A stretch of 64,000 nucleotides of DNA from Patescibacteria group bacterium (lineage in GTDB: Bacteria; Patescibacteriota; Minisyncoccia; Phycocordibacterales; JBBTRF01). The position numbers and the translations under genes are program-made. Below the pieces are notes generated by a model that was not told the origin of the DNA, made no database searches, and was given only the letters and a program-made list of their open reading frames with translations. Location: the NCBI GenBank assembly GCA_038065315.1, contig JBBTRF010000001.1, forward strand, positions 300,776 to 364,775, in the 5' to 3' direction. Shown in pieces: positions 9,654 to 39,989 of this stretch; positions within the stretch are counted from its first letter, which is position 1, and every line of letters begins with the position of its first letter.

Positions 9654-11063
9654 ATGAAACACAAAATCCTCGGCGCGCTCACGATCTTCTTCGGACTGAG
9701 CTTCGTCATCCTCGCTTCGATCAATCACTTCGGCGGGTTCAAAAACCTGCCCGAGTTCCACATGCCGGACATTAGCATTTGGGACAAGCTACCTAACTGG
9801 TCGCTTCCCGATTGGAGTTCGCTGATGTGGACACTGGTGGCCATTGCCACCACACTGTGGCTCGTCTTCCTCGTCTTCGGAGCCTACGGGTTAGCGAAAC
9901 GAGGTAAGTTCTTCAAGTTTGCCAGTGAAAATGAACTTTTCACCTTCATCAACGGTGATGACGCACCTGTGAGATTCGTCTCCGGCGTGCGCGGCGTGTT
10001 TGTTGTCCAGCACGGACCTGACATTGGCGTAGTGAAAGAAATTCCTCCCAAGTCACTCCCTGCTGGAGCCACTGTCACCGAACGGGAACAGTGGGCAAAA
10101 GACACCGCGGACTACGAACAACATTACGAAGCATACCTCAAGGGTAACGCCTGGTGGCCAATGCGAATGCTGGAGAAGTGGCTTTTGATGCCAATGTTCA
10201 ATGCTTGGTGGATCGGGATTTATCCCTTCTTCCAACTACGGAAATACCCTCTCGCCTACAACAAATTGGTGAAGGACCCCGGAACAGCATCGGGAGGCAT
10301 CGACTACCACCTAACGCCGAAGATCGGCGAGGCGAAGTCAGTGTTCTACATCAGCACGCTAGGCATTTCGTTCACCGATCTCGAAAGTGCGGGACCGGAG
10401 AATCAAGTGATTCCAACGAAGCTCGTGCTCCTCGTGACCTTTCAGGCACGAAACATCCACAAAATGCAATACCGAGTCGGGAGCAATACCTGGGTCGATA
10501 TGGCAACTGGAGCCATTAAGGATGTCGTCCGCGAGCGTGTAGCGATGCATACCTACTTCGAACTCTTGCGCAACAAGTATCATGATTGCACGCCAGCCAC
10601 GGTGGGAAAAACTCCTCGTGGAGAAATCATTGATGGGGTGAAGGATATCGTCAACAACGGTAATGCCCACAACCCGTCACTGACCACCTCCGTTGGCGTT
10701 GAAGTCACTGAAATTCGCGTCTTAGACGTTGATCTCGGCAGCGAGATTGGCGCCCAGAGGGAGACACTGACAGCAGCAATGATGGCTGGCACGATTGCGG
10801 ACGCGAATGGCAAGGCCGCCGTGATAACCGCGACACACAAAGCGGCTGCGGACCTCGCAGAAGGCCAGGCCAAGAATCAAGTGCTCAGAGATCGGCTCCA
10901 AGCCTATACGCAAAACCCTGCTGCTACAGCAGGACTCTTCGCTGATTCAGTTGCCTCAATCGGCACGCTGGCACTCGGAGATGAAGCGGCGAAGCGGCTA
11001 CTGGTGACTGTCCCTGCGACACCACCACGGCCAACACCGCCGCCCACCCCGGCTCGTCCATAA
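9654..11063 (+). CDS. hypothetical membrane protein with Pro-rich C-terminal tail
   Basis: ATG start. N-terminal TM helices. The 469-aa protein ends in PATPPRPTPPPTPARP. No confident domain. Confidence 0.45.
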   Translation: MKHKILGALTIFFGLSFVILASINHFGGFKNLPEFHMPDISIWDKLPNWSLPDWSSLMWTLVAIATTLWLVFLVFGAYGLAKRGKFFKFASENELFTFINGDDAPVRFVSGVRGVFVVQHGPDIGVVKEIPPKSLPAGATVTEREQWAKDTADYEQHYEAYLKGNAWWPMRMLEKWLLMPMFNAWWIGIYPFFQLRKYPLAYNKLVKDPGTASGGIDYHLTPKIGEAKSVFYISTLGISFTDLESAGPENQVIPTKLVLLVTFQARNIHKMQYRVGSNTWVDMATGAIKDVVRERVAMHTYFELLRNKYHDCTPATVGKTPRGEIIDGVKDIVNNGNAHNPSLTTSVGVEVTEIRVLDVDLGSEIGAQRETLTAAMMAGTIADANGKAAVITATHKAAADLAEGQAKNQVLRDRLQAYTQNPAATAGLFADSVASIGTLALGDEAAKRLLVTVPATPPRPTPPPTPARP

Positions 11064-11086: not shown

Positions 11087-11794
11087 ATGAGCTACCTCAT
11101 TGTAATACTGGCAATCATCGCCGGCGGCATTGCCGTCTGGAAGACCATCGGGTGGGCAAATCCGAGTGGTGCCTCTACAGCCACTAACCCACCAACCACC
11201 GGAGCAAATCCTGCGACCGGCGGCACAGCAGGCGCTCCCGCTACACCCACCGCCGCCGACATCAGGGCCGCAGCAGAAGCAGCCATCAGGCAACGGGTGG
11301 AGCTACGAAAGATCCAACTCAAGACCGCCGGCCTAGTCTGGAAGTGGGTCTGGAGTATCGGACTCCTCGCAAGCCTCGGCTTCGGCATCTGGGCCATCTG
11401 GATCCGTCCGCAAGCGAATGGCCTCACACCCTCGCAAGAGTTCGTGGCCAGCTCCGGAGCATCGGTAACGCCGCCCAAGGTCTCATACACCTTCGCGGCA
11501 TACAAGTCGGGCTCGAACGAAGAAATTCGTTGCCGAGCCTGGGTGCTCAACGAAGTGCGCGGCGACCACCCACACATGTGGTTCAGCGTCGAGCGCTTCA
11601 TGCAAGGCCGGCCTGTCGTCGTCCTCTACAAGTGGGACGGCCGAAAGAAAGCCGGCACTTGGGAGGACGAAGGCGATCGCACCCGCGGCGAGTTCACGGG
11701 CGACATCGACCCACGAGATCCGAACCGGTTCGCCGGGGAGATCTTTGCGGAAGGCACCACCTTCCGCTACTTCCTTCAACGGAAGATCGAATAG
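11087..11794 (+). CDS. hypothetical membrane protein (two TM, Thr/Pro/Gly-rich linker)
   Basis: An RBS-like AAACGGAG sits before the ATG. No domain recognised. Confidence 0.45.
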   Translation: MSYLIVILAIIAGGIAVWKTIGWANPSGASTATNPPTTGANPATGGTAGAPATPTAADIRAAAEAAIRQRVELRKIQLKTAGLVWKWVWSIGLLASLGFGIWAIWIRPQANGLTPSQEFVASSGASVTPPKVSYTFAAYKSGSNEEIRCRAWVLNEVRGDHPHMWFSVERFMQGRPVVVLYKWDGRKKAGTWEDEGDRTRGEFTGDIDPRDPNRFAGEIFAEGTTFRYFLQRKIE

Positions 11795-11827
11795 TAGTGG
11801 TTGAGGCTCTACAGCCCCACCCCAACG

Positions 11828-11870
11828 CAAAGAGCGCGACACCCGGTTGGTGTTGCGCTCTTTTTTCTTT
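11828..11870. terminator. bidirectional terminator between convergent units
   Basis: AGAGCGCGACAC-ccggttgg-TGTTGCGCTCT, flanked by a T-tract on the + side. Confidence 0.55.
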
Positions 11871-11904
11871 GCCTTTATATTTTTTGCGGGATGGCCCGCA
11901 CTAC

Positions 11905-12162
11905 CTAGAACACTGAGACTCCGACCGTGGCGCCAATGAGACTCACAATGGCCTTGGCCGTCACCATGATCGCGAGACCGACAACCCCCCACGTCATGTG
12001 CCTCACCCCGAGTGCTCGCGCATCTTCATTGTCAGCGCCTCTCACGTATTGGAACACGCCCCAGAGGAAGACAAGGAAGGCGACGGCGTATGCCAGCTTC
12101 AGCACCGGATTGACCACTGCTTCTGCGAGCTTTGAAATCAATGAGTCGGTGGCGCTGGACAC
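11905..12162 (-). CDS. VirB2/TrbC-like (T4SS-type) pilin-like protein, short paralog P1 (no signal peptide)
   Basis: 85 aa, GTG start. Carries the conserved core FLWGVFQYVRGADNEDARA...WGVVGLAIMVTAKAIVSLI shared with four upstream paralogs. Confidence 0.5.
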   Translation of the reverse strand: MSSATDSLISKLAEAVVNPVLKLAYAVAFLVFLWGVFQYVRGADNEDARALGVRHMTWGVVGLAIMVTAKAIVSLIGATVGVSVF

Positions 12163-12183
12163 GGGATATATACAGTGACTGAA

Positions 12184-12564
12184 TTACTGGAGAGTGTCTA
12201 AGGTTGGTGCTGTCAGACCCTGTTCTTCTAAGTTAAACGTCTTTTTTAACAAAGTCACGAGTCCGTACACAGAGACCATCACGAAGATTCCGACAATACC
12301 GTACAAGATAGTGCTCTTCGCCTTTTCTTTCTTCTCCTCGTCGTCACCCATGATCACATACTGGAGTACCCCATAGAGGAAATACACAACGGCACAAGCA
12401 ATAAGAAAGGGTACTGCATAGTCTAGGAATGAACGGAATAATTGCGCAATGCCACCAAGACCTTGGGTTGTATTTTCAAAGTCGGTACTCACTGCCGCAA
12501 ACACCGAAATCGGAGCCATGAGAGCAGCCGCTGCTGCTGACATTCCGTAAAAAAGCTTTTTCAT
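12184..12564 (-). CDS. VirB2/TrbC-like pilin-like protein, paralog P2 (signal peptide)
   Basis: Starts at the internal ATG (MKKLFYGMSAAAAALMAPISVFAA), which reads as a signal peptide. Core: YFLYGVLQYVIMGDDEEKKEKAKSTILYGIVGIFVMVSVYGLVTLL. Confidence 0.6.
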   Translation of the reverse strand: MKKLFYGMSAAAAALMAPISVFAAVSTDFENTTQGLGGIAQLFRSFLDYAVPFLIACAVVYFLYGVLQYVIMGDDEEKKEKAKSTILYGIVGIFVMVSVYGLVTLLKKTFNLEEQGLTAPTLDTLQ

Positions 12565-12701
12565 ACGTAAAATTGAATAAACTGCTGATAATAAAGTAAT
12601 ACACTTCTTAAAGGCAAAGATATTACCTCCCGACATTATACCAGCCCCTAGAATGGCGACAAACCAAGGGTGTGGACAGGCAGACCGGAGCGCCGCGGCG
12701 G

Positions 12702-12965
12702 CTAGAACCCAACAAAAAAGGTATTGATCACCAAGCGCACCAATCCCCACACGGAAAACATCACGGCCAAGCCGATGATGCCGTAGATCATCATATCCCT
12801 GCCCTCTTTCACTTTGTCCTCACTGGCACCGGCCAAAATATACTTCTGTACACCATAGAGAAAGGCGACAATCGCGGTAGCAAACAATAGGGGTGCCAAA
12901 GTACCGCCAATAATGTCGTACAAGACATCGATGAAGTCTTTGAAATCGGTGACGCCGTTGAGCAT
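12702..12965 (-). CDS. VirB2/TrbC-like pilin-like protein, short paralog P3 (no signal peptide)
   Basis: 87 aa. Core: AFLYGVQKYILAGASEDKVKEGRDMMIYGIIGLAVMFSVWGLVRLV. Lies 5 nt after the stop of P4. Confidence 0.5.
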   Translation of the reverse strand: MLNGVTDFKDFIDVLYDIIGGTLAPLLFATAIVAFLYGVQKYILAGASEDKVKEGRDMMIYGIIGLAVMFSVWGLVRLVINTFFVGF

Positions 12966-12970
12966 GAATG

Positions 12971-13369
12971 TTAGATATTACTGACGCTCTTCACTGTATT
13001 CTCAATAATCCTCGCGATGATCTCCGCACTAAGCAGCACAGCAGTACCCACCGCCGCCCACTTGAGGGTGCCGTGCGCCTTGCCCACCTTTTCCTCATCA
13101 CCCTGCGCGGTCACATACAAAAAGCCGCCGTAGATGAAGTAGAGCACTGCGATGATGGCGCCGAGGCGACTCACCAGCTTTAGGATATCGGCAAGGAGAT
13201 CTTCGATAGAGTTTGCCTTGAGCGGATTGGAGAAACTGAGAGCTTCGTTTGTGACCGACGCATGGACCAATGGTACAGCAACAGTGAGAAGTACTCCGGC
13301 CACCAAACAATGCGCCATGAGTTTCTTGAAGATAGGTTTGAACTGCCTCGTGTGTGAGAAGTATTTCAT
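12971..13369 (-). CDS. VirB2/TrbC-like pilin-like protein, paralog P4 (signal peptide)
   Basis: 132 aa with an N-terminal signal/TM (LVAGVLLTVAVPLVHA). Core: YFIYGGFLYVTAQGDEEKVGKAHGTLKWAAVGTAVLLSAEII. Confidence 0.6.
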   Translation of the reverse strand: MKYFSHTRQFKPIFKKLMAHCLVAGVLLTVAVPLVHASVTNEALSFSNPLKANSIEDLLADILKLVSRLGAIIAVLYFIYGGFLYVTAQGDEEKVGKAHGTLKWAAVGTAVLLSAEIIARIIENTVKSVSNI

Positions 13370-13373
13370 GTCT

Positions 13374-13859
13374 CTATTTTATCTCAATTGTGTTCCCTTT
13401 CAAAATCGGGTAGCTCACCTGATTCAATAAGGCTTGCAATAAAGTCGTAACAATCAGCCACGCCGCCAAGATAATACAGAAGCCGATAGCGACGTTGGTA
13501 AAGATTGTATGCGCCTGCCCGACCTTCCCCTCATCGCCAGCGGAAGTCATATAGAGGTAGCCCGCATAGGAGAGGAGCAGGATAACGGCGGGGACGGAGA
13601 GGTAGAAGGCAAAATTGACCACATTCTTGGCGAGCAACACCACATCAGCGAAGGTACATTCGTGCGCCGCGGCGGTATTGTCGGGGTTATCAAAGTCACC
13701 ACAGACGATGAGGTTTGGCTTCTGAAGCCCGAAGAAACCGTTACTAGCTGCTGCGACAGGTGCCGGAATAAGGATGGCAGAGAACGACAGAAAGAGGAGC
13801 GCGGACAGCAAGCTCGAGAGGACGACTGAAGCGGCGATTTTTCTAAAAAAAGGGTGCAT
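13374..13859 (-). CDS. VirB2/TrbC-like pilin-like protein, paralog P5 (signal peptide, longest)
   Basis: 161 aa. Signal peptide AASVVLSSLLSALLFLSFSA, with two Cys in the ectodomain. Core: YAGYLYMTSAGDEGKVGQAHTIFTNVAIGFCIILAAWLIV. Confidence 0.55.
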   Translation of the reverse strand: MHPFFRKIAASVVLSSLLSALLFLSFSAILIPAPVAAASNGFFGLQKPNLIVCGDFDNPDNTAAAHECTFADVVLLAKNVVNFAFYLSVPAVILLLSYAGYLYMTSAGDEGKVGQAHTIFTNVAIGFCIILAAWLIVTTLLQALLNQVSYPILKGNTIEIK

Positions 13860-13863
13860 GTGT

Positions 13864-15162
13864 TTATCGTAGCAAAGCCTGGAGCTCTTGGGAGGCCGCG
13901 CTCACGGCCTCGCTTGGGCGATATTTGCCGGAAGTGACACTTTCGATCATGCGCTTGAAGATCGCACCAGTAGCGACTGGTTCAGGATCGATCCAGCTGC
14001 GAGCGATGAGAGAGGATCGGTACGATACGGCGAGAGCAGGGTCGGCCGGCGCCGTCGCGAGCAAGTCCCGACGCGACGGCGCGAACCCTGTCTGCTGAGC
14101 AAACGTACTGACAAATGTCTGATCAGCCAAGATAGAGAGCACCTGGAAAGCACCGACCGGATCCTTTCCCGCCTTCATCAAGGCCAAGCCATAGAGCTTG
14201 CCGTACACCATCGGCACCTTCACGTCGCGCGGTTGTGGCAAAGCGGTGATATCAAAATTGAGATTTGGATTCTTGCGAAGCAACGTCTCATTCTCGCTAG
14301 CGAAGGCAAAGTAGGTGGCAAGATTGCCGGCCAAAAAGAAGTTCTGCGCGTCACCGATGGCCCGATTCCATGTAAATGTCGTTTTCGAAGGGTTAGAAAA
14401 TTGCGTGTAGAAAGCCACTACAGAGACTGCTGGAATATCGGAGACTCCTTTAGGGCGATCAGACAACGTGCTAGAGAATGCACCATTCTGGTCAATCTTT
14501 GTAATAGGGGTTCCGGCCTGCAACAGCAGTGCTGAGAGGGTGTCTTTCGCATTCGAAATGTTTACCACCTCGCCAAACGGCACAGCGCTTTGGGTAATAT
14601 TGCCCGCCGCGTCTTTTTTGGTGAGCTGAGGTGCTAATGTGAGAAATTCATCCCAATGCTTTGGCGGATTGGCTAAACCAGCAGTGTTGAAGATGTCTTT
14701 GTTCCAATACATCACGAGCGGATCGCTCACGAAAGGCAGCGCCCAGACGCCGCCGGACATCTCATACAGGCGAGCCTGGTCACTAAAGGTATCTCGGAAG
14801 GTGCGGAGCGGCAGGCTCGCCTCCGGGATAGGCAAGATACGCCCCTGCTGGCGAAACAAGCTGGTGTGTGGAAGTAGCACCGCATCCGGACCGACCCCAG
14901 AAGCCAGAGCCTCGGTGAGTTCGCGATCAAAATCTTTCTCCTTCTTTTCGACATAATTGATAGCAAGCCGCTGTGGCAACACTTGATTTACCGTAGAAAC
15001 CACCTGAGCAAAATCACCTGCCGGCAAAGTACCCCACAAAGTGATCGCCATCAAGCCTTTGCTTGAAGAACCTTTAAATGTCGCAAACACCACCAAGGCC
15101 ACGAGCACCGCTCCGGCAAATATGCCGGTGAGGACGATCTGAAACGTGGTCATATTTTTCAT
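13864..15162 (-). CDS. extracellular solute-binding protein (ABC-type, family 1-like), TM-anchored, orphan
   Basis: N-terminal TM, then a ~400-aa periplasmic-binding-protein-like fold (WNKDIFNTAGL..., GNLATYFAFASEN). No permease or ATPase genes are adjacent. 4-nt gap to pilin P5. Confidence 0.65.
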   Translation of the reverse strand: MKNMTTFQIVLTGIFAGAVLVALVVFATFKGSSSKGLMAITLWGTLPAGDFAQVVSTVNQVLPQRLAINYVEKKEKDFDRELTEALASGVGPDAVLLPHTSLFRQQGRILPIPEASLPLRTFRDTFSDQARLYEMSGGVWALPFVSDPLVMYWNKDIFNTAGLANPPKHWDEFLTLAPQLTKKDAAGNITQSAVPFGEVVNISNAKDTLSALLLQAGTPITKIDQNGAFSSTLSDRPKGVSDIPAVSVVAFYTQFSNPSKTTFTWNRAIGDAQNFFLAGNLATYFAFASENETLLRKNPNLNFDITALPQPRDVKVPMVYGKLYGLALMKAGKDPVGAFQVLSILADQTFVSTFAQQTGFAPSRRDLLATAPADPALAVSYRSSLIARSWIDPEPVATGAIFKRMIESVTSGKYRPSEAVSAASQELQALLR

Positions 15163-15686
15163 ATTTTTGTGAAGATAAGCCCGTAATGATGATCCCCTGC
15201 CGAAATGCCGCGCACATGCTGAAAGCCATTTTGCACAAAAAGCTCTTTTGTCTTCGTCTCACTCACCACTTCCTGCACCGCCGGACCAATGCCGCCAAAA
15301 GATTCTTTCCAATCCACCACCGCGACCTTTCCACCTTTTTTCACAATCCGTCGCACCTCCGCGACCAGCCCAACCTTGTCGGCCGCTTGAAACAGCACGT
15401 TCGCCACAATCACGAAATCCACAAGTTCATCGCCAATATGGGTGCCGCCACGCTGCTCGATGTTACCCCAAAGATATTCGACATTCTTCAGGCCGGCATG
15501 TTCAGCATTGGCCTTGATCTTCGCGACTAAATCGCGCTGCACCTCCACCGCATACACCCGACCCTTCTCGCCCACTGCCTGTGCCGCTGGGATCGCATAC
15601 GCCCCGACGCCCGCTCCCAAATCCGCCACCTTCATTCCAGGCATCAACCCCAGCTGATCAGTATTTTTGTGCGGGTGGGAGAACAT
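15159..15686 (-). CDS. class I SAM-dependent methyltransferase
   Basis: SAM motif I VADLGAGVGAYAIP and motif post-I VYAVEV. 4-nt overlap with the downstream gene. Confidence 0.8.
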   Translation of the reverse strand: MFSHPHKNTDQLGLMPGMKVADLGAGVGAYAIPAAQAVGEKGRVYAVEVQRDLVAKIKANAEHAGLKNVEYLWGNIEQRGGTHIGDELVDFVIVANVLFQAADKVGLVAEVRRIVKKGGKVAVVDWKESFGGIGPAVQEVVSETKTKELFVQNGFQHVRGISAGDHHYGLIFTKI

Positions 15687-15710
15687 TGTTGGCTGTGGCC
15701 AGCGAATTAA

Positions 15711-17906
15711 CTACTGCTTCACACAAATGAAACTTCTTTCCAGTGCATCTACCACAACTTTTCTGGCACCGGTACATGTGCCATTGTTTAACACGGTCCT
15801 CCTTTGTGAGTCATTTGATTCAGCGGGGCCATTAAAGTTTGCACCTGTAGGATCCACTGCACACCCCCACGAGTCGGTAGCAAGAGAGACGGTATTAAAT
15901 TGGGTCATGGTTCCCTTGCGTGTCGCCGAACCACAGATAGTGCCCGCGGCCGCTGCGGGTGCAGCGGCGGTAACATTGTTCACTCCAGCAAATTTGAAGC
16001 CAGTTTGCTGACTTAAGTTCCTATCCCGACACCCATTTATCGCGTTGGTATACGACTGAGACAAACCGACTACATCATTGATCCAGGCTCCAGTGGTAGG
16101 ATGAAAATACACAGTGAGATGCGGACCGGCATCAGAATCGCTTGAGTAAATTCTTCTTCCTGGAGTTCCCCAAGAAACAGTGTTCACTCCTTGCGCATAC
16201 ATGATCACTTTTGAAGTATCTGATGCTGACTGACACAAGATCGCATCCGGCACATCGCCCATCATGCCCTGGCCCGGGCTCATTCCTACTGTCACCGCAC
16301 CCGTCCCACTCGCTGGAGATATCGTCACCCCAGTGCCCGCAATAATCTGGGACACTCCCGCTGAGGCAGTAACAGTGTTCACCCCAGCAGAAGAGCCCAC
16401 AAAAACATTATACGTCCCGGCCGGAACAGCACAAGCGGTTCCGTCATACGCATTACTAAATCTAACCTTTACCATATTAGGACTAACCACAGAAGCATCG
16501 ATCGAAGCGCAAGGAAGTGGGGCGGTGATAGGAGTGTAATTATTATAATAATTATTAGGCAGACTCACGCTTACAGAATCGCCGACACTTGCCCCAGTAA
16601 CGGTTATCGAGTCGGAAACATACGCACCTGTAGGTGCCACGTTGCGACTGGATGCGAGAGTTAGAACACCCTTCAATACTGATCCGCCACCCGATGTTGT
16701 ACTGCCTCCTCCGCACAATTTCCATGCAGTTGAACTAAGTGTCGGACTGTTTGTAGCTCCATTTACCACCTTGTAGTAATAGCCCGGTGGCACAAGGAAG
16801 GTGATCGAATTTCTATTGGTAGAAGTAAAAATCTCTTGAGAGACGAGAGTCGATGCACTAGAGACGCCGATATAACCAGCTAAGGCATTCTGACCGCTAA
16901 ATGACGTCTCGCTTGCGGTGGCAACCACTATCAGCTGAGTGCCGCTGGTGTTCTGGTAAGTGGTCCCACTCAGCATACTTGGACCACTCTGGTTAGTTGC
17001 CTGAAAAGGATTCGCGTCACAAGAACCGACAACCGCAGGACTTGAGGTGGTACCACCACTCACCCCTCCGAGAACATACACAAAGGTGTCGACAGGTCGC
17101 GTGGTGTTGCCGTATCCAGGGAAAGACGTGAACAAGCCGCCCTGAATCTTCACCGTGTGACTTCCAGCAGCAAGACTCACTCGGCTCGAGAGATTTACCG
17201 TACCGCAGTCTGCACCATTTGATTCACCTCGGAAAGCTTTCTTGTCCTTCTCGACACCATCAACGCGCATGTACACATTGAAAATGATGGCGCCGCAGAC
17301 GTTCACTGACGAAGTGATCACCACATCGGTCGGCCCGGCGAGGGTGAATGTGCTCTCCACGTAATTTGCACTATTATTTCCAAAATCTTGCGCGCTGTAG
17401 GCGAGTGGGCCGAGAATCGCGGTGTTTGCAGGAGTTCCAGAAGGGGTAGACGGCGCAGCTGGCAATGTCTGCCAGCTTGCGAGACCACTCGCATTCGAAG
17501 TGAGCACCTTACCAGCGCCTTGTGTGCCGTCGGCGAGAGTGAGACCTAAAGAACCGAAGGTGAGGAGTTTCATCGGTGAGCCGGCGACGAAGGTGACGGC
17601 TTTCGACACAAGGAGAGTGTCAGTCGAAAGCATCGTGGTACTTGCCAAGCCGAGCACATCAAACGTGCTCGTTATTGGACTCGGTGGACTCGGCAACACA
17701 GCCGTGGTCCCGAGAAATAACGGCCCAAACTTTCGCTGCATCAATGAGCTGATATTTATTGGAGCAGACGCATTGTTTGCCGGAGGGTTGGCTGGCGCCG
17801 GTGTCCAAGACGACTGAGCCGAGAGGCTAGTGACGCCGAATCCTACAACCAGCATCAGAATCGCGACTTTGGCGACGCCAAGGAGAGAAGCGAGAATATG
17901 TTTCAT
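15711..17906 (-). CDS. large secreted Ser/Thr/Gly-rich surface protein (731 aa after signal peptide)
   Basis: Starts at the internal ATG (MKHILASLLGVAKVAILMLVVGFGVTSLSA), a signal peptide. The body is extremely S/T/G/N-rich and low-complexity, with Cys in the C-terminal ~150 aa. It heads the co-oriented cluster. Confidence 0.55.
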   Translation of the reverse strand: MKHILASLLGVAKVAILMLVVGFGVTSLSAQSSWTPAPANPPANNASAPINISSLMQRKFGPLFLGTTAVLPSPPSPITSTFDVLGLASTTMLSTDTLLVSKAVTFVAGSPMKLLTFGSLGLTLADGTQGAGKVLTSNASGLASWQTLPAAPSTPSGTPANTAILGPLAYSAQDFGNNSANYVESTFTLAGPTDVVITSSVNVCGAIIFNVYMRVDGVEKDKKAFRGESNGADCGTVNLSSRVSLAAGSHTVKIQGGLFTSFPGYGNTTRPVDTFVYVLGGVSGGTTSSPAVVGSCDANPFQATNQSGPSMLSGTTYQNTSGTQLIVVATASETSFSGQNALAGYIGVSSASTLVSQEIFTSTNRNSITFLVPPGYYYKVVNGATNSPTLSSTAWKLCGGGSTTSGGGSVLKGVLTLASSRNVAPTGAYVSDSITVTGASVGDSVSVSLPNNYYNNYTPITAPLPCASIDASVVSPNMVKVRFSNAYDGTACAVPAGTYNVFVGSSAGVNTVTASAGVSQIIAGTGVTISPASGTGAVTVGMSPGQGMMGDVPDAILCQSASDTSKVIMYAQGVNTVSWGTPGRRIYSSDSDAGPHLTVYFHPTTGAWINDVVGLSQSYTNAINGCRDRNLSQQTGFKFAGVNNVTAAAPAAAAGTICGSATRKGTMTQFNTVSLATDSWGCAVDPTGANFNGPAESNDSQRRTVLNNGTCTGARKVVVDALERSFICVKQ

Positions 17907-18127
17907 AATGAAAATAAATGCAACGGATAATAGTACCCATTTAGTATACCACTGTTCATCTGAACCAAAATCACTTTCTGGGGATTGTAAAGTCCTTGGC
18001 ATTAGCCATTTTAAGCACGTGTGGATAACTATTGACTTTTTGCGCTTTTAGAGGTAATATCAAAAACAGCTTTGACAACTCACTGCAGTGCAGCTCAACC
18101 ACAACCCCCTGCCCATGGATTTGACTT

Positions 18128-19279
18128 ATGAATGCCCTACTCAATCGGGCGCTGGTCGCCCTTGTTAGCACCCTCGCCTGCCTGACCTTGTGGTCCACGG
18201 CAGACGTTCGAGCGGCTGACGTGCTTCCAAGCACGCTCAGCCAGATTCGCACCGCGCAATTTGCGGGTGTCAACACGATCGAGGCCCTCCTCTATCGCTG
18301 GCCCCACGACTACTACGCTGTCGAGATCGTGCAACCCATCGCGCGCACCAACGTGTCCGTCTCCGGCCTCACGCCGGAAGCGTTCACCAACAAGCTTCGC
18401 GAGGTTGCGTTCCAGATGGCCTGTTTGGCAACAAACTACCCTCTGGCGAATAGCGATGGAACGAATTCAAGGTTTCTGCTGAAGACCACCGCCAAAGAGG
18501 CCGACATCCCGAGCGTCTTCGCCAGTGAAAGTCCGGATATCCCCGCGACAACACTGGAAATGGCGCAGGTCAATGTCGTCTTCCCCTTGGTCACCAATGG
18601 GGTTGGCGGCTTCCGACTTCCGGCTGACGCAACAGCGGAGACCATCCCGATCAATGTCGCTGGATACGTCTTCCTGCCGTTTCCCAACCTGAGGTATTTC
18701 GACGGCCCACCGCCGGCAACACCCTGGTATACCTGGTATCTTCTCGGATTCTCCGATCGACCGACGTGTGCTCGAGTTTTTACGAGCAACCCGGACGGCA
18801 GCACGAGCGAAGTGCTAAGCAAGACGTGGGGGAATTCGACCATCAACTATCTGGAGGAGGATCCGGCGCACTACGCCGATTACTTCGACACGGATGGGTT
18901 CAGACTCCTCCGCCTCTCCGGCATTGCCCGCATCGGTATCCACCTCTCGCTGCTCACCAACGGGACTCCGACGGTTCTTGCTCTAGAAGCAGCCGACGGC
19001 ACGTTTCCAAAGTATTGGCTCCCGACCGGACAACCGATCGGCGCGCCGGTGCTCACCAGCATTAGCCTGGTGAACGGCGCGCCGAAAGTAAGCTTCGTGG
19101 GCATCCCGGGTCGGCAAGTGGTGCTCGAGAGCGCGACGTCTCTCAGAACGGATGCTGTGTGGACCGTGAGCGCGACCTTTTCGCTCCCGGACCAACACGG
19201 CATGACCAATCACGCCTGCCCTACAAACATTGGGCCAGGTATGGGACCGCTTCGCTTCCTCCGCTTGCGTGAGCAATGA
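18128..19279 (+). CDS. secreted hypothetical protein (signal peptide)
   Basis: Signal peptide MNALLNRALVALVSTLACLTLWSTADVRA. 383 aa. No domain recognised. It is divergent from the pilin cluster. Confidence 0.5.
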   Translation: MNALLNRALVALVSTLACLTLWSTADVRAADVLPSTLSQIRTAQFAGVNTIEALLYRWPHDYYAVEIVQPIARTNVSVSGLTPEAFTNKLREVAFQMACLATNYPLANSDGTNSRFLLKTTAKEADIPSVFASESPDIPATTLEMAQVNVVFPLVTNGVGGFRLPADATAETIPINVAGYVFLPFPNLRYFDGPPPATPWYTWYLLGFSDRPTCARVFTSNPDGSTSEVLSKTWGNSTINYLEEDPAHYADYFDTDGFRLLRLSGIARIGIHLSLLTNGTPTVLALEAADGTFPKYWLPTGQPIGAPVLTSISLVNGAPKVSFVGIPGRQVVLESATSLRTDAVWTVSATFSLPDQHGMTNHACPTNIGPGMGPLRFLRLREQ

Positions 19280-19394: not shown

Positions 19395-22300
19395 TTACAA
19401 ACACACCGCGCTCGCCAATGTGTCACCATCTCGCAGGCGCATAATACGTACGCCTTGGGTCTGTCGGCCGAGGACCGGAATCTCCTTGATATCGCAGCGG
19501 ATGACCTGGCTCTTTTTGGAGATGGCCACGAGCTCGTTGGCACCATCACCGACCTCGCCTTCTTTCACCTCCTTGGCAGCCGCAGCCACATCCACCACGC
19601 TCGAAGTGATGACCTTGCCGGTCTTGTCGGTGATTTTCGCGGTCAAAATACCGGAGCCGCCGCGCTTCTGCACCTTGTATTCGGAGAGCTCAGTCTGCTT
19701 GCCGTAGCCGTTGCTCATGATCACGAGCAGTGCTGGCTTTTTCATATCCTTCTTCACCACATCGGCACCAATGACGGTGTCGCCCTTTTCGAGACGCATC
19801 GCAATGACACCCATGGCTGCGCGGCCCATTTCGCGGATATCGGTTTCCTTGAATCGGATCGACTGACCTTCGCTGGTCGCAAGGATCACCTCATCGCCCT
19901 TCTCGACAAATCGTACCGACACGAGACTATCGCCAGACTCCAGACCGATAGCGATGAGGCCACTTCGTCGAACATCGTGGAAGGTTTCGGCATTCACCTT
20001 CTTGCCCACGCCATTTTTGGTGATCATGAAGAGACTGAGACCGCTTTTCTTCACCTCCTTCGGCATCGGGAGAATCGAGGTGACGCGTTCGTCGTCGGCC
20101 AGTGCCAAAAAGTTTACGATTGACTTGCCCTTGGTCGCGCGCTTGCCTTCAGGGATCTCGTACATCTTGATCTGGTACGCCTTGCCCTTGTTCGTGAAGA
20201 ACAGCATGTCCGCATGCGTGTTCGCATTCAAAATATGGGTGATGAAATCCTCTTCTTTCGTATCGAGATCCACCACACCTACACCGCCGCGCTTCTGTCG
20301 GCGATACTCGTCTGGCAAGGTACGCTTGATGTAGCCACCCGCAGTGAACACGAGCACAGAGTCCACGTCTGGGATGGTGTCCTCAGGCTTAAATTCCTTC
20401 ACACCTCCACGGATGACCTTGGTGCGTCGCTCGTCGCCATATTTTGCACGCACTTCGAGCAGTTCTTTCTTGATCACCGCCAAAATCTTCTTCGCGCTCG
20501 AGAGCAAATCCTTGAGCTCGCGAATGAGCGCCTGCACAGCGTTGAGTTCGTCTTCAATCTTCTGTCGTTCGAGGCCCGCGAGACGCGACAGCTTCATTTC
20601 CAAAATAGCAGTCGCCTGGCGGTCGGAGAATTTGAAGGTCTTCATCAAATTGAGATGCGCCTCCGGGGTGTCCTTCGACTTTTTGATCAATTTAATGATC
20701 TCGTCGATATGGTCGAGCGCTTTCTTGAGGCCGAGCAAAATATGCTCACGGTCTTCAGCCTTGCGGAGGTCAAATTCGGTGCGACGACGCACCACCACCT
20801 GTCGATGCTTAATGAATTCCTCGAGCACGCTCTTGAGCGAGAGTGTCTGCGGCACGCCGTCCACGAGGGCAACGGTGTTGAAGTGGAACGTATCTTCGAG
20901 CTGTGTGTGTTTATACAAAAAGTTCAGCACGGCCTGTGGGAAAGCACCCTGCTTGAGGTCGATCACCACGCGAATGTCTTTCGTAGACTCGTCTCGGAGG
21001 CCCTTGATACCTTCGACCTTCTTCTCGCGAACGAGGTCGGCGATGGTCAAAATAAGGTCGGCTTTGTTCACTCGATATGGGATCGAGGTGATGATAATCT
21101 GGAACGAGCCGTTCTTAGTCTCCACGATTTCCGCTTCGCCGCGCACCACCACGCCGCCGCGGCCAGTGGTATACGCATGCTTCATTTCGGCAGAAGCGTA
21201 CAGCATCGCGCCAGTCGGGAAATCCGGACCCTTCACAAATTGCAAAAGGTCTTCCGCAGAAGCATCGGAGTTGTCGATGAGATGCGTGGTCGCATCCACC
21301 ACTTCGCCGAGATTGTGCGGCGGAATGTTGGTCGCCATACCGACGGCGATACCAAGGGTGCCGTTCAAAAGGAGATTCGGGACAGCAGCCGGCAGCACGC
21401 CCGGCTCTTTTCGAGTGTTTTCGTAGTTTGGTCGGAAGTCGACAGTGTCTTTCTCAATATCCTGGAGCATCACGGTCGAGATGCGCGCCATCTTCGCCTC
21501 AGTGTATCGTTCTGCCGCGGCGCCGTCACCGTCGATTGAGTTGTGCACGAATACGCCCGCCGCCAGCGCAAAATTGTGGCTTACCGGCACAGTGAGGTCG
21601 TATACATCTTCGCGTTCGCCTGAGAATTCAACGCGAGAAACTTTGTGGTTTCCCACGAGCTCAACCGTAAGTCGGTCGAGATTAGAACCGTAATATTTAC
21701 TGAAACCAACCTCCCATGAAGTGGCCGACCTGTACGGGTACACCTTCGGACGAAATTCTTCGTAAGTCTCCTTGGAAAGCGGTACACCCTTCTCGATCAA
21801 TTTCTTGCAAACCGTGTCGAATTTCTTCTTCCCGGTCTTGTTTGTGGTGTGATTTTTGTTTCCCTTGATGATCCGCGCGTGCATCTCTTGGCGATACGCC
21901 TCATCCTGCCACAAACGCTTCAAGGTCTTGGTTGCGCGAGCCGAAAGTTCCAGACGCTTTTCTGGATGAGCTGCAATGTACTCAAGATTCACTCGACTGA
22001 GCGTCTCGATCATCTGCGCACGGTATTCAGGATTCTGCCAATTCTGCTTATTCCTTTCCGACATCGCCTGGCTATACTGCTCTTTTACGCCAGCCTTTGC
22101 ACGAAACGCCTTTCTACCTTCCGCAAGCTTCTTTACGTACTCGGGATCATTTTTATGTCGGCCAGCAGTCAGTTCGGAATGAAGTCTCCAATGATCGATC
22201 CATTGCATTCGCTGGATATTTTCTGGACTATTGTTGCCTTTATTAAAATCGACATGATGTCGGACCTTGCCGGCTGACTTGGCATATTTACCAATAGAAA

Positions 22301-23141
22301 TGTTGAGGGCATCGGCCAAATGATGCGCATACTCCCAAGTATTATCGAGAGGTTGGTAGATCATCTCGTATCCAACCATATCCGAAAGTGCACTTTCTCC
22401 TTTTTCAGAAAGACGGCTGTACAAAGGCATCAATGATTCACCTGGCTTTAGATATTGCGCCTCTTTATAATCCTGATTCTTCAGAAGGAATTTGTGGTTT
22501 AGCGTACATTTGATCTCTTTTCCATTGTCGAGCACCACCTTCATGATCTCAGCGTCCTTAATCGTCAGTCGCGGCTTTATCAATTGAGCAATTTCCACCT
22601 TTCCCTCTTTTGAAACAGTGAAGGTGTAATTTTTCTTGCCCTTCTTGTCCTCATTGATGAGTTCACCAAAAGAAAGATTGCGCCCATCAGCGAGTCGAAC
22701 TTCCGTATCTTTTGTAAAACAACCGAAGTTACCCTGGCCGATGATCAGCGGGTATCGAATCGAAAAATCCTGCGCCATCTTCACCATAGATTCATACACC
22801 GCGACGTTGCCGTGCGGGTGATATTTTCCGAGCACGTCTCCCACCACCGCCGCAGACTTTCGCGTCTTCGCGCTCGCCACCAGGCCCATCTCGTGCATTG
22901 CATACAAGATACGTCGGTGCACCGGCTTCAAACCGTCGCGCACGTCAGGCAGGGCTCGCGCAGTGATCACGGACATCGCGTAGTCCAAATACGAGTCGCG
23001 CATTTCGGTAGTGATGCTGCGACTCACCACGTTCTCGCGTGCAGGCAAAGCCGACGCCTCTGATGCGCCACTTTTTCCGCCCTTATCGCTTTTGCCTTCG
23101 CTGCCGCCCTTTGGCTTCTTGTCTGAATCTTTAGATGACAT
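19395..23141 (-). CDS. gyrA: DNA gyrase subunit A, intein-containing precursor (1248 aa)
   Basis: N-extein ends ...IIGQGNFG and the C-extein resumes SIDGDGAAAERYTEAKM, with the active-site Tyr region intact. The rest is a normal GyrA, including the C-terminal beta-pinwheel repeats. Confidence 0.95.
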   Translation of the reverse strand: MSSKDSDKKPKGGSEGKSDKGGKSGASEASALPARENVVSRSITTEMRDSYLDYAMSVITARALPDVRDGLKPVHRRILYAMHEMGLVASAKTRKSAAVVGDVLGKYHPHGNVAVYESMVKMAQDFSIRYPLIIGQGNFGCFTKDTEVRLADGRNLSFGELINEDKKGKKNYTFTVSKEGKVEIAQLIKPRLTIKDAEIMKVVLDNGKEIKCTLNHKFLLKNQDYKEAQYLKPGESLMPLYSRLSEKGESALSDMVGYEMIYQPLDNTWEYAHHLADALNISIGKYAKSAGKVRHHVDFNKGNNSPENIQRMQWIDHWRLHSELTAGRHKNDPEYVKKLAEGRKAFRAKAGVKEQYSQAMSERNKQNWQNPEYRAQMIETLSRVNLEYIAAHPEKRLELSARATKTLKRLWQDEAYRQEMHARIIKGNKNHTTNKTGKKKFDTVCKKLIEKGVPLSKETYEEFRPKVYPYRSATSWEVGFSKYYGSNLDRLTVELVGNHKVSRVEFSGEREDVYDLTVPVSHNFALAAGVFVHNSIDGDGAAAERYTEAKMARISTVMLQDIEKDTVDFRPNYENTRKEPGVLPAAVPNLLLNGTLGIAVGMATNIPPHNLGEVVDATTHLIDNSDASAEDLLQFVKGPDFPTGAMLYASAEMKHAYTTGRGGVVVRGEAEIVETKNGSFQIIITSIPYRVNKADLILTIADLVREKKVEGIKGLRDESTKDIRVVIDLKQGAFPQAVLNFLYKHTQLEDTFHFNTVALVDGVPQTLSLKSVLEEFIKHRQVVVRRRTEFDLRKAEDREHILLGLKKALDHIDEIIKLIKKSKDTPEAHLNLMKTFKFSDRQATAILEMKLSRLAGLERQKIEDELNAVQALIRELKDLLSSAKKILAVIKKELLEVRAKYGDERRTKVIRGGVKEFKPEDTIPDVDSVLVFTAGGYIKRTLPDEYRRQKRGGVGVVDLDTKEEDFITHILNANTHADMLFFTNKGKAYQIKMYEIPEGKRATKGKSIVNFLALADDERVTSILPMPKEVKKSGLSLFMITKNGVGKKVNAETFHDVRRSGLIAIGLESGDSLVSVRFVEKGDEVILATSEGQSIRFKETDIREMGRAAMGVIAMRLEKGDTVIGADVVKKDMKKPALLVIMSNGYGKQTELSEYKVQKRGGSGILTAKITDKTGKVITSSVVDVAAAAKEVKEGEVGDGANELVAISKKSQVIRCDIKEIPVLGRQTQGVRIMRLRDGDTLASAVCL
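21540..22721 (-). mobile_element. GyrA intein (394 aa) with HNH-type endonuclease domain
   Basis: Begins with Cys (CFTKDTEV...) and ends ...VFVHN, followed by a Ser. The internal HNH motif is HHVDFNKGNNSPENIQRMQWIDHWRLH. The insertion lies between GNFG and SIDGDG, about 10 aa before the catalytic Tyr. Confidence 0.85.
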
Positions 23142-25823: not shown

Positions 25824-26603
25824 CTAGGATTCAAGTTTCTTGCGAGCATCGCCAGCAATCGTCCCACCCTTCGTAGCCGCAACTTTATTTGGAACGAACC
25901 CTTGAGCATCAGTAGTTCGAGCAATTTCTGTGGTCGCCGCCTCACCGAGCATTGAAAAGATGAGTTCTAGGTCATTCATGTGATCACGAAGATTCTCTCG
26001 CTCGAGACCTTTTAGGGTTTTATACTCATTCGGCGTCATGCCAAAAGCCGCTTTTGATATCTCGGCGGTGAGAATAGCGTATTCATTTTGCTCTTTGACG
26101 CCTCGATTCTGCCACTCGTTGGTCAATTCTTCACGAATGGTAATACCCCTCATACGCTTTTCGATCCAGGCATCATCGTAGCCCTTAGCTTTATAAAGAG
26201 CGCGAGTGCGTTTTGTGGCAAGTTCAGGGTCTTCGATCTCCTTTATGCGTTCATAGCCTACAGTAGCCAACCAACGCTTAAATGGTTCGGCTTTGGGTGA
26301 AGGGACTGACTGGATAATGCGGAACAAGCCTTCGGCGTTGGCGCAGTCAGTTTCTCGCATCTTGCCATCAGGGGCCGGCAATTTCAACTGGTGACAAAAT
26401 GTCACCAGTTGACTCCCTTCGTCTTTCAGCCTTTGCGCGAGTTTATTCCAATATTTTCTCGCAGTGAGATCATCGACTTGATCGGTAAGCGCCTGCACTA
26501 CATCCACCACCGAAAACCACCACTCATTGTTGCGGATGATTTTTCGAATCTTCGTGCCCTTAAAGACGGCGATTTTACTGATTGGATTTAGATTTTCTGA
26601 CAT
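25824..26603 (-). CDS. Bro-N domain protein (phage antirepressor / DinD-like)
   Basis: Starts at MSENLNPISKIAVFKG. The Bro-N core is KIRKIIRNNEWWFSVVDVVQAL. The C-terminal half resembles the DinD/RhuM family. TGCTATACT lies ~36 nt upstream. Confidence 0.5.
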   Translation of the reverse strand: MSENLNPISKIAVFKGTKIRKIIRNNEWWFSVVDVVQALTDQVDDLTARKYWNKLAQRLKDEGSQLVTFCHQLKLPAPDGKMRETDCANAEGLFRIIQSVPSPKAEPFKRWLATVGYERIKEIEDPELATKRTRALYKAKGYDDAWIEKRMRGITIREELTNEWQNRGVKEQNEYAILTAEISKAAFGMTPNEYKTLKGLERENLRDHMNDLELIFSMLGEAATTEIARTTDAQGFVPNKVAATKGGTIAGDARKKLES

Positions 26604-26749
26604 TCTGTTATTTCTTATATCTTGCAGTAAAGCTAGTATAGCAAAATAGTGCTCAAGAAACATATAAAAAATGTTAAAGAAAAGCCTAAGAAAAGGTAAA
26701 GAAATTATGAAGAGAAGTCCTCATCACACATCTCTGCTATACTATCGTC

Positions 26750-39218: not shown

Positions 39219-39989
39219 ATGATTTCTAAGTGGTACGACAAAAAAGCTGCAGTGCTGCAATCTCGAAAGAAGGGGTTATCTTTTCGTGAATTAGAAGAGA
39301 AATTTGGCGTACCCCGCTCCACACTGAGCGGTTGGTGCAAAGAAGTTTCATTAAGTCCCTCAAATGAGGAGCGCCTTCAGAAAAAGTGGCGAAAAGGCTT
39401 GAGAAAAGGGCGCATAGGAGCAGTGCGTTGGCATAATACCCAGAAACAAATCCGAATAGATGCGGCGAAAAAATCAGCCGTCGATGTCCTGGAAAGGATC
39501 GACCTTACTGACAAGAACGTACTTGAGACACTACTCGCCTTCCTCTATTTAGGAGAGGGCTTCAAAACTACGAGCACGGGTATCGGGAATAGTAACCCAC
39601 TCATATTACAATTTTTTGTATCAATGCTGCGAAATGTCTATGAAATACCTGCGAAGAAACTGCGATGTGAACTCCACCTGCGAGCAGACCAAGACGGAGA
39701 AAAAATGAAGAAATACTGGTCGAAGTCACTTGGGATACCGATCAAAAACTTCACCTCCCCACATTTTGACAAACGCACCATTGGCTTCCCCACTTATCCG
39801 CAGTATAAAGGGGTATGTTTGGTGCGGTGTGGAAATATTGCCATACAACGAAAATTAGTATATCTTAGCGAGATAGCGTGCAAGCAAATCGTTGGGCGGT
39901 TAGCTCACTTGGTAGAGCGCGTCGTTGACGTCGACGAGGTAACAGGTTCGAGCCCTGTACCGCCCACACATGACCGCAGATACGCATAA
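39219..39989 (+). CDS. hypothetical HTH-domain protein with LAGLIDADG-like motif; ORF reads through tRNA-Val
   Basis: N-terminal HTH-like segment (SFRELEEKFGVPRSTLSGW). Internal LAFLYLGEGFKTT resembles a LAGLIDADG block. The last ~30 codons (GRLAHLVERVVDVDEVTGSSPVP) are the tRNA-Val gene translated in frame, so the true 3' end is uncertain. Confidence 0.4.
   Translation: MISKWYDKKAAVLQSRKKGLSFRELEEKFGVPRSTLSGWCKEVSLSPSNEERLQKKWRKGLRKGRIGAVRWHNTQKQIRIDAAKKSAVDVLERIDLTDKNVLETLLAFLYLGEGFKTTSTGIGNSNPLILQFFVSMLRNVYEIPAKKLRCELHLRADQDGEKMKKYWSKSLGIPIKNFTSPHFDKRTIGFPTYPQYKGVCLVRCGNIAIQRKLVYLSEIACKQIVGRLAHLVERVVDVDEVTGSSPVPPTHDRRYA
39894..39966 (+). tRNA. tRNA-Val (GAC)
   Basis: Sequence GGGCGGTTAGCTCACTTGGTAGAGCGCGTCGTTGACGTCGACG...GGTTCGAGCCCTGTACCGCCCA. 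The anticodon loop TTGACGT gives GAC. Confidence 0.85.

Follow-up and report, generated by a model that had tools for sequence, protein, structure and literature searches.

Could a tandem array of pilin-like genes belong to a secretion pilus when no secretion machinery is encoded next to it? This question is raised by a gene cluster in a 64-kb stretch of DNA from a Patescibacteria group bacterium (positions 300,776 to 364,775 of contig JBBTRF010000001.1, GenBank assembly GCA_038065315.1), the whole of which is called the window below. On the minus strand, at 11905-18002, eight consecutive co-oriented open reading frames (ORFs) were found, namely five small genes, termed P1 to P5, and the genes for a solute-binding protein (SBP), a methyltransferase (MTase) and a giant protein. 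An initial annotation had reported eight co-oriented minus-strand genes at 11905-17906, and the ORFs are indeed located where it placed them.

Tandem arrays of VirB2-like genes have already been described in Patescibacteria. In total, 441 arrays with 2-11 genes and a mean identity of 25% were found in 383 assemblies, and a role in host range has been suggested for them (PMC12102498). In S. epibionticum, the six PF18895 genes SEML1_0014-0019 are located beside VirB6/VirB4, and each of them is essential (PMC10633639; review PMC12857230). Here, we explore the cluster of the window together with the corresponding loci of related genomes. Our preferred reading, to which we assign a probability of about 0.6, is that the small proteins are subunits of a heteromeric pilus or stalk of a type IV secretion system (T4SS) encoded elsewhere, and that they work with the SBP.

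The Pilin-like Array

Judged by their profiles, the five small genes constitute a Paceibacteria-type array of pilin-like proteins of the VirB2/TrbC superfamily (PF18895). The scores against the Pfam model T4SS_pilin (PF18895), whose gathering cutoff is 26.6 bits, are 38.8 bits for P1, 37.1 for P2, 34.9 for P3, 52.1 for P4 and 43.0 for P5. In addition, P1 (21.1 bits) and P4 (25.2 bits) show sub-threshold matches to TrbC/VirB2 (PF04956), and P4 is named ‘pilin’ in the NCBI annotation. P2-P5 are 24-30% identical to P1, and the common core of the five paralogs reads F-L-x-G-V-x-x-Y ... D/E-E-x-K ... G-I-V-G. Five tandem genes of such identity agree with the published definition of the arrays (2-11 tandem genes, mean identity of ~25%), and, like the published ones, this array consists of PF18895/TrbC-like genes, is chromosomal and comes with no relaxase (PMC12102498, PMC10633639). 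The initial annotation had assigned the five genes to a small VirB2/TrbC-like family typical of Patescibacteria, an assignment with which both the hidden Markov model (HMM) scores and the published arrays agree. For 23 other loci, 130 of the 132 array ORFs match PF18895 (E <= 0.001) and 23 match TrbC, with a best E of 6.6e-9. No sixth pilin copy was found in the window by an HMM built from the five.

Hydropathy, alignment and structural model all point to a helical hairpin, composed of two hydrophobic helices and a short charged D/E-E-x-K loop. For example, the AlphaFold model of P4 displays one helix at residues 12-34, corresponding to the signal peptide, and a hairpin at 55-87/92-130, with a predicted local distance difference test score (pLDDT) >90. 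According to hydropathy, P5, P4 and P2 have an additional hydrophobic segment at the N-terminus, which P3 and P1 lack. The former are exactly the three proteins for which signal peptides had been predicted initially. Class III signal peptides were not seen, and the pilins carry ordinary N-terminal hydrophobic leaders or none.

The VirB2/TrbC/TraA pilins of diderm bacteria are built alike: they are small, carry a signal peptide and contain two hydrophobic helices linked by a short charged loop. However, a diderm T4SS operon usually contains the gene of a single major pilin, whereas here 5-7 distinct subunits are encoded away from the core in a monoderm-type cell. All five proteins also show weak full-length matches (E 5e-7 to 9e-4, under the 40-bit NCBIfam cutoff) to NF045849, the Mbov_0395 family of pilin-like proteins known from the integrative and conjugative element (ICE) of Mycoplasma and from other monoderm ICEs and plasmids, one member of which occurs in a tandem pair in Pontibacillus. 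The Mbov_0395-family loci, unlike the present array, serve the conjugation of mobile elements, with two copies and no SBP.

Conservation of the SBP and the Array

Several hundred full-length homologues of the SBP exist at ~40-45% identity. Based on the SBP alignment, 80 loci were retrieved from different species-level genomes, which bear labels such as Taylorbacteria, Zambryskibacteria, Campbellbacteria, Paceibacter and similar. The ORFs of these relatives were called and then searched with the pilin HMM from the five genes of the window. A pilin gene directly follows the SBP gene in all 73 loci with enough flank, and at least three pilins follow it in 62 of 63. As counted by script, the MTase gene immediately precedes the SBP gene in 67/75 loci, and in 25 cases its stop and the SBP start overlap by 4 nt. 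Of the eight exceptions, L009 results from a filter artefact, as its MTase is in fact listed. Upstream on the same strand, gyrA is found in 56/62 loci. Five pilins are present in 30 loci, six in 13, seven in 10 and four in 5, besides two smaller outliers. The usual order is therefore gyrA-MTase-SBP-pilins (x5-7), embedded in a wider synteny of Pth, S1, Lactamase_B_3, GyrA, MTase, SBP and pilins, followed by convergent unknown membrane proteins, RbfA and IF2. The same gene order was recovered on independent assemblies of the same organism, and consequently the cluster is not an assembly artefact.

The MTase gene is absent from seven loci, in which gyrA is followed by the SBP gene directly. Therefore, the invariant core consists of the SBP and the array, and gene order marks these two as a conserved functional module, located downstream of gyrA and usually preceded by a small S-adenosylmethionine (SAM)-dependent MTase. 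The MTase, which matches Methyltransf_31/25/11 and UbiE-like models and whose best solved relative (3dh0) is labelled only ‘SAM dependent methyltransferase’, is a frequent but not obligate member of the module and is dispensable in a sub-clade. The idea that it is an obligate pilin-modifying enzyme is weakened by the same seven loci.

The SBP is, by profile, a genuine carbohydrate-type binding protein. It scores 58.4 bits with SBP_bac_1 and 54.9 bits with SBP_bac_8 in Pfam, and the closest solved relative in the profile search is 4r9f MBP1 (E 1.5e-19, full length). It shares full-length profile matches and the SBP_bac_1/8 models with the family-1 carbohydrate SBPs of ATP-binding cassette (ABC) importers (4r9f MBP1, MalE and UgpB), but differs from them by the lack of a permease or ATPase nearby in ~80 loci, a conserved transmembrane anchor, the obligate pairing with pilin genes and the occasional fusion described below. 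The single N-terminal hydrophobic segment spans residues 4-33, in which F7 is invariant and F15 and F26 are near-invariant. No ABC permease or ATPase was detected by Pfam in the window, and none occurs among the conserved neighbors of 79 related loci. The initial description of an orphan, membrane-anchored binding protein thus holds, with one N-terminal anchor and no transporter partner nearby.

We also found that the SBP and the first-position pilin are fused in frame in two species, L046 (10004-11686, 560 aa) and L073 (3510-5216, 568 aa), the two fusion proteins being 67% identical. Here, the SBP domain is followed by a 30-40-aa linker, which takes the place of the signal peptide, a Cys-x13-14-Cys loop and the two-helix core. 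The predicted topology of the fusion puts the SBP domain and the N-terminal part of the pilin outside the cell, and such a protein suggests a contact between the SBP and the first-position pilin.

In its layout, the fusion resembles a pilin domain to which a binding domain has been attached. The two-domain tip adhesins FimH and PapG are arranged in this way, and the minor pilins of type IV pili (T4P) and type II secretion systems, for their part, are distinct subunits of low abundance that form a fixed set and whose genes lie together. The likeness of the SBP-pilin fusions to these proteins is one of analogy and not of homology, and no prepilin peptidase, PilB/PilT, chaperone or usher is encoded in the window.

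Could the adjacency simply be a relic of gene order, in which the SBP and the MTase are unrelated housekeeping genes retained with the array in an old operon downstream of gyrA? The whole neighborhood (Pth, S1, Lactamase_B_3, GyrA ... RbfA, IF2) is syntenic across the class, and the MTase is generic and lost in some loci, as such an inertia would lead one to expect. However, the SBP-pilin adjacency is kept in 73/73 loci while the gyrA-MTase gap, whose median is 158 nt in the relatives, ranges from an overlap to ~7 kb with insertions. Moreover, the 4-16 nt junctions suggest translational coupling, and the in-frame fusion has been retained in two species. We therefore consider mere inertia very improbable.

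As a separate observation, the gyrA-MTase gap holds unrelated inserted genes in some relatives (e.g., L046 and L078), and thus behaves as an insertion hot spot beside a rigid operon.

Fixed Subunit Classes

Are the five paralogs interchangeable variants, or does each have its own place? P5 has its best match at array position 1 in 53/59 loci and P4 at position 2 in 46/59, whereas the best match of P2 is the penultimate member in 42/58 loci and that of P1 the last member in 49/58. The best matches of P3 are scattered over the middle and late positions, where the copies vary in number between species. The orthologues are 34-41% identical across species, compared with 24-30% for the paralogs within this genome.

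The anatomy, tallied over 53 arrays, is also specific to the position. A signal peptide is present in 96% of the first-position class, together with an extension of ~33 aa and, in 83%, a Cys pair. The second-position class carries a signal peptide in 91% and an extension of ~28 aa, and the penultimate class in 92%, with an extension of ~13 aa and, in P2, a C-terminal tail of ~19 aa. For the last-position class, a signal peptide is found in only 8% of arrays. By these comparisons, the paralogs are five anciently diverged subunit classes in fixed places of the operon, and not interchangeable variants. All six array genes of S. epibionticum are individually essential, which fits non-redundant subunits, and this, combined with the class-specific anatomy, argues for a heteromeric assembly of non-redundant subunits.

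According to the initial annotation, the paralogs diversify for antigenic or host-range variation, mainly in their exposed N-terminal parts. In comparison with the close relative L008, the N-terminal parts, including the signal peptides, are 50-71% identical, the pilin cores 76-96% and the SBP 87%. The N-terminal parts thus do diverge most. However, the hallmark of antigenic variation, namely recent lineage-specific duplication and turnover that leaves the paralogs more similar to one another than to the orthologues of other species, was not found, and the positional orthology over ~60 species, the anatomy peculiar to each class and cores that evolve no faster than the SBP contradict such a role. 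In Bartonella and Anaplasma, antigenic variation has been proposed for the VirB2 copies, whereas here the positions are fixed and the orthologues are closer than the paralogs.

The same annotation had joined the pilins, the binding protein and the giant protein into one T4SS-independent adhesion appendage, and the giant protein has to be considered in this context. It has no match in Pfam, NCBIfam or PHROGs and only 15 homologues, mostly with partial coverage. The signal peptide and the N-terminal stalk are conserved, with an invariant GxxGxGKVLTS motif, while the distal modules are shuffled or replaced. The protein with the GKVLTS motif is confined to the closest relatives of the window (L001-L009), in which its gene lies between gyrA and the MTase gene, and is absent from >70 related loci. 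No other gene here evolves as fast (49-65% identity along 58-81% of the length, compared with 93-96% for GyrA in the same relatives). The AlphaFold model is poor (mean pLDDT 49), but two beta-sandwich domains in it weakly resemble C1q/TNF heads, a carbohydrate-binding module (CBM) and the phage lambda tail fibre, which gives only a hint of a variable adhesin or receptor-binding protein. By its distribution, the giant gene is a lineage-specific modular insertion and not a part of the conserved module, with which it is probably co-transcribed. Since its presence is limited to close relatives and its gene is an insertion between gyrA and the MTase gene, a role of the giant protein as a conserved partner in a single surface apparatus is not supported.

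Such an appendage, with paralogs diversifying for variation, would accord with the lack of a T4SS core in 64 kb, with the faster divergence of the N-terminal parts, with a hypervariable, modular giant protein bearing adhesin-like beta-sandwich domains, and with the box-type promoter that the giant gene has in common with the P2 unit (see below). It is nevertheless hardly likely, since the orthology by position and the position-specific anatomy extend over ~60 species, the array size is near-fixed at 5-7, the cores are conserved as well as the SBP, and the giant protein is missing from >70 related loci. In addition, signal peptides, a kind of sequence that always changes rapidly, belong to the fast N-terminal parts.

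Divergent from the giant gene, at 18128-19279 on the plus strand, there is a gene for a 383-aa secreted protein with no family match, which is restricted to the closest relatives and changes rapidly (54-71% identity). This gene and the giant gene were probably acquired in the same insertion. Membership of the conserved module was considered for the giant protein as well as for the 383-aa gene and the 235-aa gene convergent with P1, and was rejected because all three are confined to the closest relatives.

Transcription Signals

The gene junctions in the cluster are 4-24 nt gaps or a 4-nt overlap, except that between P3 and P2. The tight packing stated initially is therefore correct for most junctions but not for this one, where the gap is 137 nt if P2 begins at the Met of its signal peptide, and a promoter-like site is situated inside it. 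The predicted promoter comprises the box TGTCCACA at 12678-12671, a -35 element TTGTCG at 12662-12657, a 16-nt spacer with TG and a -10 element TATAAT at 12640-12635, and scores 10/12 in the promoter scan as an extended -10 type. In 91% of 53 arrays, at least 60 nt (median ~104 nt) separate the penultimate pilin from the gene before it, compared with 5-16 nt at the other junctions. The consensus of this spacer is tTATCCACA, 6-8 nt, TTGnnn, 16-17 nt (often with TG) and TAnAAT, followed by a 5' untranslated region (UTR) of ~50 nt. The box occurs in 32/48 spacers, against ~4 expected.

A second putative promoter lies before the giant gene, with a perfect TTATCCACA at 18028-18020, TTAAAA at 18014-18009, a less ideal spacer of 19 nt and TACAAT at 17989-17984. 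Since this promoter is inside the longest ORF, the ATG at 17906 is favored as the true start. The composite box-promoter pattern was found at these two sites of the window only, whereas 0.36 would be expected. In 79 loci, 31 of the 40 promoter-positioned composite matches precede a pilin gene. Thus, a TTATCCACA-type box is located 5-8 nt upstream of the -35 element in the two cluster promoters and in the internal pilin promoter of most related species. TTATCCACA is the canonical DnaA-box consensus, and the surface-structure genes may accordingly be controlled by DnaA or by another factor that recognizes the box.

Two other explanations of these signals were rejected. One was that the TCCACA box is a general promoter feature of the neighborhood, which does not agree with two window sites that are both in the cluster and with 31/40 pre-pilin sites in the relatives. 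The other was that the conserved 5'UTR or spacer contains a known RNA element. Rfam gave no match for 11700-18200 at E <= 1, and shuffled sequences fold as well as the UTR does (z = -0.73). Therefore, the spacer was read as a promoter.

At the 3' end of the operon, the strong bidirectional terminator has a 15-bp stem with 8 G-C pairs, a loop of 5 and a T-run after the stem on the plus strand, and a shorter, overlapping terminator-like site is found on the minus strand at 11844-11832. No comparable minus-strand terminator exists inside the cluster. The conserved spacer with its box-promoter and the terminator behind P1 point to two transcription units.

A one-mismatch box, TCATCCACA, was also noted at 58616-58608, directly upstream of the ribonucleotide reductase gene.

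Possible Link to a Type IV Secretion System

Which machinery could the pilins work with? The only plasmid match for P4 is an NF045849-family gene on the plasmid NZ_CP062975.1 of Pontibacillus sp., a megaplasmid (L089, 11782-18096). This gene and its tandem neighbor are PF18895 members, with 47.4 and 23.8 bits. Downstream of the pair are genes with weak, sub-threshold similarity to VirB6/TrbL and VirB3 (PrgI/TraL), a VirB4-type ATPase (P-loop_TraG, 84.3 bits; VirB4-like of the CD1110 family in the NCBI annotation) and a large peptidoglycan endopeptidase. The PF18895 genes of Pontibacillus thus accompany a monoderm T4SS core, which supports the T4SS link of the family. Consequently, the pilins may have been inherited with monoderm T4SS machinery of the mating-pair formation (MPF) type FATA, and not borrowed from diderm systems.

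The Pontibacillus locus, a conjugation locus of Bacillota, sits uneasily with a published statement according to which virB2 homologues are missing from the Gram-positive T4SS classes.

In S. epibionticum, the array is inside the T4SS locus, by VirB6/VirB4, and has neither SBP nor MTase. The array in the window, by contrast, is detached from any T4SS core, lies downstream of gyrA and, as in the relatives, is always preceded by a membrane-anchored SBP.

Proposed Mechanism and Alternatives

Based on the above, the following sequence of events can be proposed. The precursors would be inserted into the membrane by Sec/YidC, those of P5, P4 and P2 would be trimmed by signal peptidase I, and the helical hairpins would pool in the membrane. 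An MPF-FATA-like T4SS core (VirB4/VirB6/VirB3-like), encoded elsewhere, would then assemble them into a heteromeric pilus or an envelope-spanning stalk. P2 and P1, with a promoter of their own, would be the abundant subunits, while P5, P4 and P3, co-expressed with the SBP, would form a minor complex at the base or tip. The SBP domain, held beside the first-position pilin, would bind a ligand of the carbohydrate type, which could be a glycan on the host surface or a solute that has been captured. The TTATCCACA box shared by both promoters would place them under the common control of one DNA-binding factor, possibly DnaA.

Several points weigh against this proposal. By Pfam scans of the ~50 other ORFs, no VirB4, VirB6, VirB11, relaxase, T4P ATPase or prepilin peptidase is encoded in the window, as had been stated initially, and no T4SS core gene emerged as a conserved neighbor within 10 kb in 79 related loci, so the argument that this array depends on a T4SS draws on the literature and on other lineages. 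No pilus composed of PF18895 proteins has been shown for any member of the family (PMC10633639, PMC12857230). No sequence match to solved pilins was found, as the PDB sequence-profile search with the pilin alignment yielded noise-level rhodopsin matches only, and in fold searches the pilin hairpin is indistinguishable from other helical hairpins. The assignment of major and minor subunits is taken from promoter position and nothing else, and the MTase cannot be essential to the mechanism, given the seven loci without it. Finally, the SBP appears to retain its N-terminal membrane anchor, and a fusion anchored at both ends is hard to square with a long fibre and better with a membrane-resident complex.

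Concerning the missing core, however, a survey of 3035 Patescibacteria genomes recorded virB4 2474 times, with dnaA/dnaN as its usual neighborhood in Paceibacteria, and pilin genes are near virB4 in only 1135 of 1948 assemblies (PMC12102498). As virB4 is widespread and often distant from the pilins, the lack of a core in 64 kb does not show independence of a T4SS, and the initial conclusion that the subunits are not part of any recognizable conjugation or T4P system goes further than 64 kb can carry it.

Then, could the proteins form an SBP-dependent membrane complex rather than a pilus? The 5-7 two-helix proteins (10-14 transmembrane helices) and the anchored SBP would in this case stay in the membrane and take the place of the missing ABC permease as a device for uptake or sensing. 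They could act on their own or serve a T4SS-like importer as its entry port, and the homology to pilins would go back to nothing more than a shared ancestry of the hairpin. The SBP is a constant feature with no ABC permease or ATPase ever in its vicinity, its transmembrane helix holds conserved residues, and the natural fusion has an anchor at either end. Filaments of PF18895 proteins have not been observed, a review has speculated on uptake through the T4SS of Patescibacteria (PMC12857230), and these bacteria depend on imported metabolites (PMC10633639, PMC12857230). On the other hand, Saccharibacteria and Bacillota have PF18895 proteins in T4SS loci that lack an SBP, none of the transporter families matches the pilins of the window above noise, and signal peptides with exposed extensions and a disulfide-type loop resemble displayed subunits more than channel helices. 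Such a complex is therefore conceivable but doubtful, and we prefer the heteromeric pilus or stalk.

A bolder version may be mentioned, which we regard as improbable. As a novel type of SBP-dependent machine, a carbohydrate-type SBP tethered to the first subunit of a heteromeric VirB2-like stalk or channel would capture a host-derived glycan or metabolite for import via a T4SS-derived conduit, and the DnaA-box promoter would tie its expression to replication.

Features of the Window

The features of the cluster are listed in Table 1. Two convergent membrane proteins are encoded downstream of it on the plus strand, neither of which has a match in Pfam, NCBIfam or PHROGs. Homologues of the 469-aa protein (9654-11063) are encoded at the corresponding convergent site downstream of the array in 28 related loci, and the 235-aa protein (11087-11794) is lineage-specific.

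Table 1. Positions of the genes and predicted signals of the cluster in the window.
Feature	Position	Strand	Remarks
P1, pilin	11905-12162	-	85 aa; last-position class, without signal peptide, two hydrophobic helices
P2, pilin	12184-12564	-	126 aa from MKKLF; longest ORF reaches 12750; penultimate-position class
P3, pilin	12702-12965	-	87 aa; middle class, without signal peptide in this genome
P4, pilin	12971-13369	-	132 aa; second-position class, signal peptide, ~28-aa exposed extension
P5, pilin	13374-13859	-	161 aa; first-position class, signal peptide, ~33-aa extension with Cys pair
Membrane-anchored family-1 (carbohydrate-type) SBP	13864-15162	-	432 aa
Class-I SAM-dependent MTase	15159-15686	-	175 aa; stop overlaps SBP start by 4 nt
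Giant S/T/G/A-rich secreted modular surface protein	15711-17906	-	731 aa; longest ORF reaches 18002
Bidirectional intrinsic terminator	11829-11863	both	Between P1 stop and convergent 235-aa gene; operon 3' end
Internal promoter and upstream box	12635-12678	-	Predicted to drive P2-P1
Putative giant-gene promoter and box	17984-18028	-	Composite box-promoter match

The other genes of the window include the housekeeping genes for GyrA, IF2, LepA, MurJ, a class-I aminoacyl-tRNA synthetase, TsaD, ribonucleotide reductase, FtsA, FtsZ, Pth and signal peptidase I. GyrA (19395-23141, minus strand, 1248 aa) carries an intein with an Intein_splicing domain, as it does in L006 and L008, whereas most related species have an intein-free GyrA of ~822 aa. 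A single 549-aa ORF (39970-41619, plus strand) combines TsaD (tRNA t6A synthesis) with a NUDIX domain at its N-terminus. Among the housekeeping genes, phage-type BRO-N (25824-26663, minus strand) and ORF6N/Rha-like domains (50115-50642, minus strand) were noted, which may be mobile-element remnants or domesticated regulators. In addition, an 823-aa protein with several N-terminal transmembrane segments, a large C-terminal domain and no Pfam match is encoded at 60176-62647 (minus strand).

Significance

The array phenomenon itself has already been published. What is new here is the SBP-pilin adjacency, the positional orthology, the fusion and the internal box-promoter, for none of which a report was found in the literature searched. 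The gyrA-linked SBP-plus-array operon is thus a configuration conserved across Paceibacteria that was not found described in the available literature. It leads to testable outcomes, such as a candidate ligand-binding partner, the contact implied by the fusion, the predicted major and minor subunits, and a promoter element to be assayed for DnaA binding.

Patescibacteria account for a large share of uncultured bacterial diversity, and the T4SS with the pilin array is among the small number of systems that these bacteria have been shown to need for living on a host. For Paceibacteria, the largest class, an array of fixed, distinct subunits tied to a surface protein of the sugar-binding type replaces the picture of ‘variable pilins’. 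If the import reading were true, Paceibacteria would have an uptake route without an ABC permease, and the enigmatic T4SS of Patescibacteria would gain a concrete role.

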